Assembly: GCA_934162445.1 (NCBI GenBank) | Contig: CAKPIT010000002.1 | Span: 77,379-141,378 of the forward strand | Direction: 5' to 3' | Length of the DNA stretch: 64,000 bases | Origin: an uncultured Bacilli bacterium | Lineage (GTDB): Bacteria > Bacillota_I > Bacilli_A > RF39 > UBA660 | Shown: piece after piece, positions 47,769 to 52,388 of the stretch | Layout of the letters: every line of letters begins with the position of its first letter | Numbering within the stretch: position 1 is the first letter of the stretch | Position numbers and translations under genes: made by a program | Notes under the pieces: generated by a model | Databases searched by the model: none | What the model saw: the letters and a program-made list of their open reading frames with translations, nothing else | What the model was told of the DNA's origin: nothing

Positions 47769-47887
47769 ATTTTCCTCCTTTATTTATACATTTATATAAT
47801 GAACATATTTCTTATATTTATTCATGAATATTAGAAAGTGATTATTAATATAATAAATTAGAAATGAAAAAGAGGTGTTTTCTATTT

Positions 47888-48193
47888 ATGAAAAAATTTG
47901 GTTTGTTAGGTTTTTTTCTAGTTTGTTTATTGATTACTGGTTGTGGAAAAGATAGTGAAAGTACAATTTTAAAAAAGTTAGATAAGAAAATTAATAATAA
48001 TAATTCTTATTTAATGACTGGAACACTCGAGGTTTTAAATAATGATGATATATATAATTACGAAGTGGAAACTGCATATAAAAAGGATAATTATTATAAA
48101 GTAACGCTTAAAAATACAGCGAATGATCATGAACAAATAATTTTAAAAAATGATGATGGTGTTTATGTATTAACACACAAGGGTTTAAAATAA
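47888..48193 (+). pseudogene. 5' fragment of an interrupted lipoprotein gene (signal peptide plus N-terminal domain)
   Basis: Lipoprotein signal MKKFGLLGFFLVCLLITGC with an AAGAGG RBS. The ORF ends 5 codons after the peptide VYVLT. The C-terminal fragment at 51112 restarts with LLVYVLT. Confidence 0.55.
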
Positions 48194-48291
48194 AAAAATT
48201 TAAATAGATATAATAAAAAACAGGTAGTATTGTTAATATACTACTGCTTTTTATATTTTTAGAATATTTTGTTATGCTATATTCAAAAGCA

Positions 48292-48477
48292 CTATTTACC
48301 ACCTATTTTTTTAACTTCTGCTGAAGCATTTTTTCCGTGCCATCCCATTTTTTGAGTGTTTGGGTCATACCATGTGTGTTCGCCATCCCAAGTTTTAGAA
48401 TTTTGTTGAGCTGTACCACTACTTAAATTGTGTTTTTGCCAACTATAACCATATTCATCTTTTGTTTTGTTTGACAT
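48292..48477 (-). CDS. Small Trp/Gly/Lys-rich hypothetical protein (61 aa), element cargo
   Basis: ORF with an upstream RBS-like AAGGAGA, divergent from the 48617 gene. No family recognised. Confidence 0.3.
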   Translation of the reverse strand: MSNKTKDEYGYSWQKHNLSSGTAQQNSKTWDGEHTWYDPNTQKMGWHGKNASAEVKKIGGK

Positions 48478-48566
48478 ATATATTCTCCTTTCTTATTTTG
48501 GTTATTCTAATGACGAATTGCTTCTTTGTCAACTTTTTTCTACATATTACTATATAAAATAGTCCG

Positions 48567-48594
48567 TTGACATATTAATGATTTGCTTTATAAT
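48567..48594 (+). promoter_or_regulatory. Consensus sigma-A promoter driving the 48617 cargo gene
   Basis: TTGACA (48567-72), a 16 nt spacer, TATAAT (48589-94), then RBS AGAGAGGTG and the ATG at 48617. Confidence 0.6.
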
Positions 48595-48616
48595 ATTCAT
48601 AAGAGAGGTGAATAGT

Positions 48617-49264
48617 ATGCAAATTGTGTATAATCCTAATGATATAGATAAATTGTTATTTACGGAGTTAGTAATTGCTAAAAATCAAAATGCTTCTGAT
48701 AAAAATATATTTGAAGATGAGATATATCGAAGATTTAGATTTTGTGGATTTGATGATAGATTTACAAAAGAAATGATTGAATATGAAGAAACTATTTTAG
48801 AGGTAACAAAAAAAGAGTATGATAAATATTTTTATCAGATAAAATATTGGACTAGTCTTGGTGATAATGAAAAATTATTTAAAGATAATATTGAGTCATA
48901 TGCTTTGTATATAGATGGTGAAATGTCTGATAAGGCTTTTACTACTAGTGAACTTATAAGTATATATGATGAAGGTGATTTTATTATTAGATATGGTAGT
49001 GATATTTATAGTAGTCATTTAGAAGAAATTGATATGGTTACTTCTAATAGTAAATATAATTTATTAGATGAGTTTAGAAATAGAATTGGTTATATTCTTT
49101 TTAGGGAATTTAAACAAGAATATGATTCTAATATTGATATTTGTGCTGCTAGGCTTTATAAAAATGAGGCTCATATATTGTTCATAAATAAGTATAAATA
49201 TGCTGATAATGATGATAGAAAGTGGAAGCCATATACGAGGGAATTTTTTAATTATTATGATTAA
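48617..49264 (+). CDS. Hypothetical acidic, aromatic-rich cytoplasmic protein (215 aa), element cargo
   Basis: Clean ORF with a strong promoter and RBS. No TM helices and no recognisable catalytic motifs. Confidence 0.4.
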   Translation: MQIVYNPNDIDKLLFTELVIAKNQNASDKNIFEDEIYRRFRFCGFDDRFTKEMIEYEETILEVTKKEYDKYFYQIKYWTSLGDNEKLFKDNIESYALYIDGEMSDKAFTTSELISIYDEGDFIIRYGSDIYSSHLEEIDMVTSNSKYNLLDEFRNRIGYILFREFKQEYDSNIDICAARLYKNEAHILFINKYKYADNDDRKWKPYTREFFNYYD

Positions 49265-49377
49265 ATGTTTGTAGATTACATTTTTATGTGTCTACTTTTT
49301 TATTGTTTTAATAATATGACAAAAATAGTAAGTAATAATTAAGTATTTAGTTCATATGTTTTAATGGGTGACTTTTT

Positions 49378-49482
49378 ATGAGAGTGACATGTTATTTTGA
49401 TGAGAATGGTAAATCATTTCAAGAAATTATAGAGCAATTTCTAGTTCTTTATTATAATGAAACTTTAATAGAAAATGGTTAA
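49378..49482 (+). CDS. 34-aa ORF immediately upstream of the recombinase (possible directionality factor/leader)
   Basis: ATG..TAA open frame ending 18 nt before the recombinase start. Speculative. Confidence 0.2.
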   Translation: MRVTCYFDENGKSFQEIIEQFLVLYYNETLIENG

Positions 49483-49500
49483 AAAATTTAGGAGGTAATT

Positions 49501-51090
49501 ATGGTAAGTAGTGAAATGTATAAAGTAGGTATTTATTTAAGATTATCTCATGAAGATAAATTAAAAGGTGAGAGTGGAAGTATTTCTAATCAAAGAGACA
49601 TCATTCATAAATATATAAAAGAAAATAATTTATTATATGTAAGTGAATATGTTGATGATGGTGTCAGTGGGACGCAATTTGATAGGGTTGGATGGAATAA
49701 ATTAATTGAGGATATTGAATCCGGATGTATTAATATGGTAATTACTAAGGACTTATCAAGATTTGGAAGGAATGAGGGACAACAGTTAAGGTATTTAGAT
49801 TATTTCTACGAAAAAGGAATAAGATATGTGGCGTTACTTGATAATGTTGATACATTTGATGAATATAATACATCTAATGAAATGATTCCAATACAGTGTT
49901 TTTTTAATGAGAAGCATGTAAGAGATACTTCTAAAAAGATGAAGGCGAGTGTATATAATAAAAGAAGTCAAGGTAATTTTTTGGGTAAGACTGCTCCTTA
50001 TGGTTATAAGAAAGATCCTAATAATAAATATAAGTTGATTGTTGATGAGGTGGCTTCAAAAGTGGTTAAAAGAATATTTGATTTATTTGTTAAGGGAAAA
50101 GGAATTTGTGAAATATCTAGAATTTTAACATATGAGAAAGTACCTATTCCTACTGAGTATAAGGGCCTTAAATCTGGTCATATGTCAATAGGGTATGGTA
50201 TTTGGAATAATAGAACTATTAGTGATATGTTGACTCTTCCTACTTATGTTGGTGATTTAACGCAAGGGAGGTCAAAAAAACCTAGTTATAAATCAAAGAA
50301 AAGAGTAAGGGTTAAACCTGAAGATTGGATAATATGTGAAAATAAATGTCCAGCTATAATTGATAGAGATACATTTAATCTGGTTCAAGACATATATAAT
50401 AGGAATAAAAACCAAGGTAAACATACACAAGATATATTACTTAAGGGTTTTGTGTATTGTAAAGAATGTGGTCATACAATAGGTTTTAGACTTCAAAAAG
50501 TTAATACTAAAAAGAAAGGTGAAGTTACTAGATGTTATGGTAATTGTAATTACTGGGCTAAACATAAAAAATATGATTTATGTACTCCTCACAATATTAA
50601 GTACTATGAATTAGAAGATTTAGTATTGAGTGAGATAAAGAAAATGTGTAAAAATTATTTGAAAATTAGGGATTTAGAGAATGTATTAGCGAATAGTGAC
50701 AAAACTAAAAGAATAGTAAATGAGTTAGAAATAAATTTAAAAAAATTAGTAGCAGAAGTTGAATTTAGTAATAAGAAAAAAGAAGACTTATATAGTGATA
50801 AATTAGATGGCATTATTGATTTAGAAATGTATAAAAGAATGACTAATAGAATAGCTGAAGAAACAATCACTAAACAAAACGAGATAGCAGAAATAAAAAC
50901 TAGAATATATAATATAAATAATAATATTACTAATAATAATAAAAAATATGAAAGTGTTATAAAAGAATATTTATCTATGAAAAAACCTAGTGTACAATTA
51001 TTATCTAGTATCATAGATAAAATAGTTATAGATGAAAATAAAAATGTAGAGATATATTATAAATTTAAGCCATTTGAAAATGGTTATTAA
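49501..51090 (+). CDS. Large serine recombinase (resolvase/invertase N-terminal domain, recombinase domain, zinc ribbon)
   Basis: The N-terminal resolvase domain has a catalytic Ser context (GIYLRLSHED, SISNQRD, DLSRFGRN). The middle region is a recombinase domain. C-terminal zinc ribbon (CKECGH...CYGNC) and coiled-coil. 529 aa. Confidence 0.85.
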   Translation: MVSSEMYKVGIYLRLSHEDKLKGESGSISNQRDIIHKYIKENNLLYVSEYVDDGVSGTQFDRVGWNKLIEDIESGCINMVITKDLSRFGRNEGQQLRYLDYFYEKGIRYVALLDNVDTFDEYNTSNEMIPIQCFFNEKHVRDTSKKMKASVYNKRSQGNFLGKTAPYGYKKDPNNKYKLIVDEVASKVVKRIFDLFVKGKGICEISRILTYEKVPIPTEYKGLKSGHMSIGYGIWNNRTISDMLTLPTYVGDLTQGRSKKPSYKSKKRVRVKPEDWIICENKCPAIIDRDTFNLVQDIYNRNKNQGKHTQDILLKGFVYCKECGHTIGFRLQKVNTKKKGEVTRCYGNCNYWAKHKKYDLCTPHNIKYYELEDLVLSEIKKMCKNYLKIRDLENVLANSDKTKRIVNELEINLKKLVAEVEFSNKKKEDLYSDKLDGIIDLEMYKRMTNRIAEETITKQNEIAEIKTRIYNINNNITNNNKKYESVIKEYLSMKKPSVQLLSSIIDKIVIDENKNVEIYYKFKPFENGY

Positions 51091-51111
51091 AAATAGAAAA
51101 AAATTAAACCT

Positions 51112-51846
51112 TTGTTAGTATATGTTCTCACTCCTAGTTTAAATAAAAGTTTTAAATTTCAAAGTGATTGGCCGTATAATAATTCACAGATCTATTTATT
51201 GGAATCATTGATTAATGATATTAAAAATGATAATAAAAGTGAATTTAAAACGAAAAGTGATGGCTATATTTTTACTAGTAAAGTAAATTATCCTAATAAT
51301 CGTAATTTGGTAAGACAAAAGGTTAGTCTTGATAAGAAGGTTAATTTAAAGAAAGTAATAGTTTTGGATAGTGATAGTGTTCCTAATATGACTTTAAATA
51401 TTAAAAAGATTGATTATAATCCACATTTTAGTAAAAATTATTTTAATCTTGATGATATTATGGGTAGTAGTTCTAGTAAAGATACTAAGACGGAGAAAAC
51501 AGGAATTATTAATGATGTTATTTATCCTTTGGTTCTTCCTGAGGGGACTAAGTTAACTAATGAAGAAACAGTAAAAAAAGATGATGGTAATCGGGTTATT
51601 CTTACTTTTTCTGGGGAAAAGCCATTTACTTTAGTGGAAGAAGTAGATATGGTTAATGATCAGTTTACGGTAATACCAACGATGGGGGAACCGTTTATGA
51701 TAATGGATAGTCTTGGGGTATTGGGTGATAATTCAGTTAACTTTAGTTCAAATGGTATTAGTTATTACTTGGTTAGTGATGTTATGAATCAAAGTGAACT
51801 TTTGGAAATTGCTAATTCGATAAATGTTTTACCAACAATGAAATAA
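51112..51846 (+). pseudogene. 3' fragment of the interrupted lipoprotein gene (LolA-like/DUF4367-like?)
   Basis: No signal peptide. Frame opens 3 codons after the in-frame TAG at 51094. Begins LLVYVLTPSLNK. The combined N- and C-fragment length is about 340 aa. Confidence 0.5.
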
Positions 51847-51902
51847 GCACGAAAGTGTTTATTTTTTTTAGTTTTTATGGTACTATTTAAGTGGTGATAT
51901 AT

Positions 51903-52388
51903 ATGAAGAAAACAACTTATGGAAATGAAATGCAAGGACAAGTTAAAAAAGTTATAATTATTCTTGTAGTTATAGTTATTTTATTAGGAGGAACTTATTT
52001 ATTAACAACTAAAATATTAAAGAAAAGTAATAGTACTACTTCTAATAAGGTTACTAAAAATAGTATTCAATATGATGAAATTTTAGCAGGGGAATCATTT
52101 AATCAAAATAATGATGAATATTATGTTATATATTTTGACAAAAGTAATAACTCTTCTTCTTTTAGCTCATTAGTTAGTTCTTATCAGTTAAATAATACTA
52201 AGACAAGAATGTATAGTGTTGATCTTAGTAGTGGCTTTAATAAAGATTATGTGACTGATGGTGAAGCTGTTGTTCACGATATTAATGACTTTAAAGTTAA
52301 AGATGGAACATTAATTAAAGTTAAAAATGGGGAAGTAGAAGAGGTAATAACTGATACAACTGAAATTACAAATATTTTGAATAGTTAG
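51903..52388 (+). CDS. Membrane-anchored hypothetical protein
   Basis: N-terminal TM helix (VIIILVVIVILLGGTYLL). About 160 aa. No family recognised. Confidence 0.4.
   Translation: MKKTTYGNEMQGQVKKVIIILVVIVILLGGTYLLTTKILKKSNSTTSNKVTKNSIQYDEILAGESFNQNNDEYYVIYFDKSNNSSSFSSLVSSYQLNNTKTRMYSVDLSSGFNKDYVTDGEAVVHDINDFKVKDGTLIKVKNGEVEEVITDTTEITNILNS

Follow-up and report, generated by a model that had tools for sequence, protein, structure and literature searches.

What is a divergent pair of orphan genes doing inside a small recombinase element that splits a lipoprotein gene? The question is raised by a 64,000-nucleotide stretch of DNA from an uncultured Bacilli bacterium (assembly GCA_934162445.1, contig CAKPIT010000002.1, positions 77,379 to 141,378), here called the window, in which a 2,957-bp element with a large serine recombinase (48169-51125) breaks the frame of a gene for a GerS-like lipoprotein. 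An earlier note had pointed to three open reading frames (ORFs) in the element: one of 215 aa on the plus strand, one of 61 aa on the minus strand and one of 34 aa in front of the recombinase. All three are present in the ORF list as claimed and are enclosed by the two crossover cores of the element. The accompanying interpretation, in which the first two genes were typical element cargo (immunity, anti-defence, toxin-antitoxin or superinfection exclusion) and the third a possible recombination directionality factor (RDF), is partly supported. The explanation that we favour, with a probability of about 60%, is that the 215-aa and 61-aa genes are a captured passenger pair, and that the rest of the element is a recombination unit with a 34-aa RDF that would be excised during development. 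More interesting than the cargo is the element family itself, with its tiny conserved partner gene and its stripped-down copy.

The pentamer TATGT marks both junctions of the element (Table 1). The N-terminal lipoprotein fragment ends at 48193 and the C-terminal fragment resumes at about 51112; joining the gene in silico at TATGT yields a 1,026-nt, in-frame lipoprotein ORF of 341 codons. The insertion thus lies within a coding domain, and joining at the core restores a single ORF. The element-side arms, TTAAACCTTTGTTAGTA and ATTAACACACAAGGGTTTAA, form an imperfect inverted repeat. The attachment (att) sites are predicted to be AAATTAAACCTTTGTTAGTATATGTATTAACACACAAGGGTTTAAAAT for attP and GATGATGGTGTTTATGTTCTCACTCCTAGTTTAAAT for attB, and an excision product would be expected to carry the rejoined attB junction GGTGTTTATGTTCTCACTCC. 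The left arm prolongs the truncated lipoprotein frame with a conserved ...THKG(L/I)... tail followed by a stop (48169-48193 in the window; attL of loci L025 and L035-L041), and therefore the same kind of short N-terminal fragment is expected in all hosts while the element is integrated. The recombinase combines an N-terminal resolvase catalytic domain (PF00239, E = 7.7e-21) with Recombinase (PF07508, 7.3e-23) and zinc-ribbon (PF13408, 5.4e-08) domains, the composition of a large serine recombinase, and matches the integrase family PHROG 95 (1.6e-92); it had no match in IMG/VR.

Recombinase scans yielded eight informative metagenome loci and 13 species-representative metagenome-assembled genomes, which together represent 19 distinct other loci from at least 13 species. 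Their hosts are uncultured gut Bacilli (one labelled Erysipelotrichaceae), and their recombinases are 59-92% identical. All 19 loci have the element in the gene for this same lipoprotein, and attL and attR are conserved throughout. Both halves of that gene are intact and in register in at least 14 copies with both ends covered, at host lipoprotein identities of 39-59%. The same domain is thus disrupted by related elements in different hosts while its halves stay intact; multiple independent disruptions of one domain serve as a criterion for regulated gene integrity (PMC7192596).

The sole non-recombinase gene retained in all copies, the minimal copy of the window included, is the 34-aa ORF. 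It lies directly before the recombinase in every copy whose recombinase-upstream region is covered, its length and stop position are identical in 12 copies, and its ratio of nonsynonymous to synonymous substitution rates (dN/dS) is about 0.10. It is element-encoded and co-inherited with the recombinase, as an RDF should be. The suggestion that it could be such a factor has accordingly gained ground, from its retention before the recombinase, from purifying selection and from the precedent of GirX (see below), and we lean towards regarding it as the RDF of this recombinase. It showed no sequence similarity to the known RDFs tested. An identity as one of the TnpW-type small transposon proteins was rejected, as five variants of the ORF gave no Pfam or NCBIfam match at E ≤ 10.

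Two described systems resemble this arrangement. The gin element of Bacillus cereus, which is inserted in gerE, has the large serine recombinase GirC and the 42-aa, motif-less RDF GirX (PMC5595907). Like gin, the window element is gene-intervening and non-phage, and its target may likewise be a sporulation-type gene; in both, a large serine recombinase goes with a very small partner protein that lacks motifs, and the att sites have a short common core flanked by inverted repeats. The two differ in their targets (gerE versus the GerS-like lipoprotein gene), in the number of recombinases (three in gin, a single one in only 2.96 kb here) and in the small ORF, which in the window has 34 aa and stands immediately upstream of the recombinase; moreover, the window element is known from sequence alone and its excision is a prediction. 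In skinCd of Clostridioides difficile, the recombinase CD1231 is constitutive, whereas the RDF CD1234 is under the control of sigmaE and SpoIIID, with a box centred at -46 (PMC5025042). In the window element family, most copies have a sigmaA-type promoter ahead of the recombinase. The small partner gene is preceded by a short leader and a CATA-type box (CATAnnnTT, about 20 nt before the start codon in 18 of the 18 aligned copies), and in 13 of these 18 by a GACAAAA box, located some 46 nt ahead of the presumed start site, a likeness that may link the two systems. CD1234 is larger than the 34-aa protein and not adjacent to its recombinase, the target of skinCd is sigK, and the promoter assignments for the window element come from inspection of the DNA only. 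We propose that the CATA-type, mother-cell-like promoter drives the 34-aa gene, and that the resulting excision would rejoin the lipoprotein gene during sporulation.

Control of the recombinase differs in the window copy. Seven other copies carry, between the 34-aa ORF and the ribosome-binding site (RBS) of the recombinase, a 44-bp segment with an extended -10 element (TGGTATAAT). In the window this segment is deleted (at 49483-49489; compare L025 5940-5990), and its recombinase is therefore left without a promoter of its own. Because of this loss, expression of the recombinase in the window copy may depend on the 34-aa gene or on transcripts that read through out of the 215-aa gene.

A possible link of the target gene to sporulation is suggested by a weak GerS match, by an upstream motif and by YabG in the window. 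Positions 10-194 of 196 of the GerS germination-lipoprotein profile (NF041286) align with the joined product across the junction, with 35.4 bits against an equivalog cutoff of 175; since the lipobox and the full-length alignment are present but the score is below the cutoff, we label the protein 'GerS-like' only. The sigmaE-like motif kmATAww-N13-15-[CA]ATAnAmT lies upstream of the lipoprotein gene in five of ten species (the window and four of nine orthologues), against a background of 0.4% of 95-nt segments and only two matches in all 64 kb. A YabG sporulation peptidase (Peptidase_U57, E = 1e-88) is encoded at 1191-1967, adjoining rsmA/ksgA; the host therefore belongs to, or is descended from, an endospore-forming lineage. 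Just 3' of the split gene, a 165-aa membrane-anchored protein (51891-52388) has a weak SpoIIIAH-like Pfam match (E = 0.014, below cutoff).

In the strongest competing account, the element is mobile and site-specific in the ordinary way and simply knocks out a lipoprotein gene that its host can spare, with no developmental excision and with the 34-aa ORF as a leader peptide or another accessory gene. Horizontal spread speaks for it. Recombinases that are 88-92% identical occur in hosts whose lipoproteins are only 47-51% identical, and the two divergences track each other poorly (Mantel r = 0.29; 497 of 5,000 permutations), so that strict vertical co-inheritance of element and host was rejected; the element therefore spreads horizontally to one conserved site. 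With their Xre and AAA_25 genes, the larger copies also resemble small islands of an integrative or replicative kind, and the sigmaA-type recombinase promoter of most copies would suit such a lifestyle. What this account leaves unexplained is that gene halves stay intact and in register at such low lipoprotein identities, the pattern on which PMC7192596 relies, that a CATA-type box, not TATAAT, is kept before the 34-aa ORF in all aligned copies, and that the minimal copy has retained exactly the arms, the 34-aa ORF and the recombinase. We consider simple gene inactivation less likely and prefer developmental excision of a recombination unit with its own RDF.

How the orphan pair came into this unit is indicated by DNA homology. 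The window copy resembles the other copies up to 48188, where the 20-nt left arm ends, and again from 49317 onwards. Of the original element the window thus retains only the recombination unit, in which the two arms enclose the recombinase, the 34-aa ORF and the control region of this ORF. Between the left arm and this control region lies a 1.07-kb cassette, in which each of two ORFs has a terminator and a sigmaA-type promoter of its own, the promoters being set back to back; it occupies the space that Xre repressors, an AAA_25 replication-type ATPase and variable genes take up in most other copies. Its homology to loci of related Bacilli spans from the terminator of the 61-aa gene to the stop codon of the 215-aa gene. 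Because these recombinase-free loci match 48199-49266 only, the window element is best described as a bare recombination unit plus a captured cassette. The base composition of the cassette is indistinct from that of its flanks. Taken as a series, the copies document element decay and exchange of content: the largest, of 7.8 kb, has genes for repressors and replication, and the smallest, of 2.96 kb, only the recombination unit and swapped cargo.

Both cassette genes carry the marks of function. The consensus promoter that had been claimed for the 215-aa gene scores 12/12, and its position is conserved across contexts, even though promoter-like sites in the region overall are not above chance (33 versus 39 ± 6 in shuffles). 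Across five other genomic contexts the two promoters are kept, as are the RBS and the start codons of both genes, but not the stretch that separates the -35 boxes; an operator common to the divergent promoters was sought and found not to be conserved. The RBS AGAGGTGA precedes the ATG at 48617. A longer ORF of 228 aa from 48578, the start of which falls within the promoter, is an artefact because homologues start at MQI. The composition of both proteins, described in the earlier note as acidic and aromatic-rich and as Trp/Gly/Lys-rich, respectively, holds on recalculation: the 215-aa protein has an isoelectric point (pI) of 4.69 and 39 F/W/Y (18% aromatic), and the 61-aa protein a pI of 9.3 with four W, seven G and nine K. 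With dN/dS values of 0.08-0.19 for the 215-aa gene and 0.04-0.11 for the 61-aa gene, these two and the 34-aa ORF are real genes under purifying selection.

The relatives of the pair live elsewhere. A word-based search of 5.8 billion proteins returned six close homologues of the 215-aa protein and four of the 61-aa protein, and on the relatives' contigs the same divergent pair lies in the chromosome, in at least two different settings, and the surrounding 8 kb contain no recombinase. In one setting the cassette adjoins tRNA-Met and tRNA-Leu (L001 7366-7529 and 8677-8752; L003 679-850; L013 1892-2063), and in L001 a tRNA-Thr brackets it on the other side; tRNA neighbourhoods are typical hotspots for inserted DNA. 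In the other, the pair lies between a NUDIX gene and the gene of a 270-aa membrane protein. At L006 (2400-2860) the 215-aa gene stands without its 61-aa partner, and the small gene and -35 box are replaced by unrelated sequence. The replacing sequence includes a fragment that resembles an Xre-type helix-turn-helix ORF.

More distant members extend this picture. In an exhaustive profile search of 1.84 billion proteins the 215-aa family comprised 34 representative clusters, all of about 200-230 aa, with R39, C43, E57, N183, E184 and Y206 invariant. Remote homologues (28-31% identity) are found among housekeeping genes, namely leuS/groEL, mraZ with a SpoIVB-type peptidase, dnaA/rpmH and the S10 operon; no recombinase is nearby, and the promoter architecture of the 215-aa gene precedes these homologues, too. 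In three remote lineages a hydrophilic, His/Gly/Tyr-rich protein of 48-72 aa is encoded 4-85 nt after the large gene. The order of such tandem operons is large (204-207 aa), small (48-70 aa) and often a third, uncharacterised protein (about 136-140 aa) that bears a GYFYIGG motif; L020 6001-7274, L050 4001-5271 and L048 4001-5256 are examples, adjoining mraZ, rpmH/dnaA or the S10 ribosomal operon. The tandem small proteins and the 61-aa protein are mutual best or near-best non-self matches in hidden Markov model searches (E = 0.13 among 6,031 ORFs; E = 3.4, rank 3) and have a GxHGxNxSxExK tail in common. By these comparisons, the pair is part of an orphan module that is restricted in lineage and found in uncultured low-GC gut Bacilli, and the cassette is self-contained, constitutively promoted, chromosome-captured and outside the conserved gene set of the element.

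These distributions bear on a rival idea, in which the pair serves in genetic conflict and is carried for its adaptive value, for instance as a toxin-antitoxin-like, abortive-infection, superinfection-exclusion or anti-defence system with the 61-aa protein as effector and the 215-aa protein as its neutraliser. The setting in a mobile element in the window, the tRNA-adjacent and varying positions in close relatives, the strength and constitutive nature of both promoters and the opposite charges of the proteins would all suit such a function, and a small basic with a larger acidic protein, encoded by compact, strongly promoted genes in a mobile element, does recall a type II toxin-antitoxin or immunity pair. 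Yet the pair is found in none of the 19 other element copies. The earlier note had held that absence of its ORFs from all other copies would speak against its reading; this is so for the 215-aa and 61-aa genes, but not for the 34-aa ORF. Likewise, the co-occurrence with large serine recombinases that it had proposed to look for is not seen, as the relatives' pairs stand in recombinase-free contexts. The genes are divergent, with independent promoters and no conserved shared operator, unlike autoregulated toxin-antitoxin operons; there are also large genes that stand without a small partner; and the remote homologues sit in core-genome neighbourhoods of stable synteny.

Database searches point the same way. 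Scans of the three ORFs against Pfam, NCBIfam, PHROGs and PADLOC gave no family match, PADLOC returning only a 13-bit, chance-level hit, which bears out the remark that none matches a recognised family; the pair thus has neither a toxin nor an antitoxin domain and fits no known anti-phage defence model in PADLOC. By tblastn, phages gave no match for the 215-, 61- and 34-aa proteins and plasmids none for the 215- and 34-aa proteins; the 215-aa protein had no match in IMG/VR, and Rfam gave no credible match. A conflict function is less likely because the homologues are set in the core genome and absent from other mobile DNA, and we judge it quite improbable. Absence from the 19 copies and presence in recombinase-free chromosomal contexts argue instead for a captured passenger, not a typical mobile-element weapon; as such, the pair would have come from the chromosome and would contribute neither to integration nor to excision. 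That orphan genes lie in a mobile element does not, then, make them weapons by default: here they are a borrowed chromosomal cassette of a small, uncharacterised family.

Similarly improbable, and compatible with rather than exclusive of a captured passenger, is the notion that the cassette was retained since its strong rightward promoter replaces the lost recombinase promoter, its proteins being irrelevant to the element: the extended -10 segment is missing only in the window copy and the same-strand 215-aa gene lies 230 nt upstream with a modest terminator through which read-through might feed the 34-aa ORF and recombinase, but a terminator is nonetheless present, constitutive co-expression of recombinase and RDF would cause loss of the element, and purifying selection acts on both proteins, on the branch to the window copy, too.

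As to what the captured pair does, we tentatively suggest a cytoplasmic two-protein complex that serves host physiology rather than genetic conflict. The suggestion is drawn from a pairing that recurs in two gene arrangements, from the close tandem spacing and from the opposite charges (pI 4.7 versus 9.3). In such a complex, the small partner, which is basic, beta-rich and of Trp/His/Gly type, may itself bind nucleic acid or metal; the helical protein of about 210 aa, acidic and abundant, would bind it, hold it or act as its antagonist. The AlphaFold2 (AF2) model of the 215-aa protein has ten helices (predicted local distance difference test score (pLDDT) 70, predicted template modelling score 0.71) and no fold neighbour in the PDB or among viral structures; the 61-aa model, of low confidence (pLDDT 56), has five short strands and a C-terminal helix. 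Profiles of the small proteins gave no match to PDB sequences.

A Pfam scan of 26 family members gave scattered chance matches and one sub-threshold match, to the Mycoplasma arthritidis mitogen (PF09245; best member 24 bits, gathering threshold 31). Residues ~113-192 of two remote members, P0018 and P0019, resemble its N-terminal domain (PDB phmmer E = 0.0024 for one of them). The mitogen (PDB 3KPH/2ICW) is likewise all-helical and of about 213 aa, and the two members align with it over some 80 residues. Superantigen identity was rejected at the family level, given an hhalign probability of 1.9%, no structural match and no match for the window protein.

Several points weigh against the explanation that we favour. 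No uninterrupted lipoprotein allele was found among the retrieved loci, and the GerS score is far under the family cutoff. An element that spreads horizontally could be a mere gene-disrupting parasite. On the side of the pair, the homology between divergent and tandem small partners is weak (hhalign probability 9%), one clade of large-protein homologues has, like L006, no small partner nearby, and the AF2 model is of moderate quality and without fold neighbour for the large protein and poor for the small one.

Table 1. Features of the element, its cassette and the split lipoprotein gene, in window coordinates
Feature	Position	Strand	Remarks
sigmaE-like promoter motif GAATATT-N15-ATATAAT	47826-47854	+	upstream of the split lipoprotein gene
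Lipoprotein gene, 5' part	47888-48168	+	signal peptide and lipobox LITGC; up to the crossover core; orthologues start at MKK
attL core TATGT	48164-48168		crossover probably at GT; core and both arms kept in other copies
Left arm of element (P' arm, ATTAACACACAAGGGTTTAA)	48169-48188		imperfect inverted repeat of the right arm
Captured two-gene cassette	48199-49266		within the element, DNA homology to recombinase-free chromosomal loci of related Bacilli (73-81% identity, blastn) is confined to this part
Intrinsic terminator of 61-aa gene, followed by U run	48213-48254	-	folding free energy (dG) -18.2 kcal/mol, z -3.7; kept in other contexts
61-aa gene	48292-48477	-	basic Trp/His/Gly/Lys-rich protein, no signal peptide
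sigmaA-type promoter of 61-aa gene, TTGACA-17-TAGAAT	48532-48504	-	11/12
sigmaA-type promoter of 215-aa gene, TTGACA-16-TATAAT	48567-48594	+	12/12, best site in the region
215-aa gene	48617-49264	+	acidic, predicted all-alpha protein of a small orphan family
Terminator of 215-aa gene, hairpin then T run	49271-49295	+	dG -8.5 kcal/mol, z -2.5
Control region of 34-aa ORF	49317-49377	+	GACAAAAA box 49318-49325; CATATGTT box 49353-49360; GGGTGA RBS
34-aa ORF	49378-49482	+	element core gene, candidate RDF
Large serine recombinase, 529 aa	49501-51090	+	Resolvase, Recombinase and Zn_ribbon_recom domains
Right arm of element (P arm, TTAAACCTTTGTTAGTA)	51104-51120		
attR core TATGT	51121-51125		
Lipoprotein gene, 3' part	51126-51846	+	in-frame when joined at the core

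If the proposed role of the 34-aa protein is true, it would be the smallest RDF known, and the minimal form of about 3 kb would show how far an element can be stripped to its bare recombination unit. Together with defined, short att sites and the 529-aa recombinase, it would make a compact integrase/RDF pair for genome engineering, and the element family would add a new target to the short list of excision-regulated genes. The boldest reading joins both halves of the story: an undescribed, developmentally excised element in a sigmaE-type, GerS-like lipoprotein gene, with the smallest known RDF, and a new two-protein module with a cellular role unseen in cultured bacteria, in which an acidic helical protein is joined by a partner that is small, basic and Trp/His-rich and, in some cases, by a third protein (about 140 aa). 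Taken as a whole, this combination is doubtful.

The complete other copies of the element measure 3.9-7.8 kb, and cargo varies widely across the family. In most other copies the cargo consists of one or two Xre-type repressors, an AAA_25 ATPase of about 340 aa, an ORF of about 120 aa, a DUF3892 protein and a 57-aa basic protein. The 3.9-kb copy (L031 4024-5781, identical to L046) has an alpha-amylase-like gene of 585 aa as its sole cargo, and at L027 (2081-3322) the cargo includes a protein in which three Top1-type zinc ribbons are combined with a HIRAN domain and a region that resembles an endonuclease.

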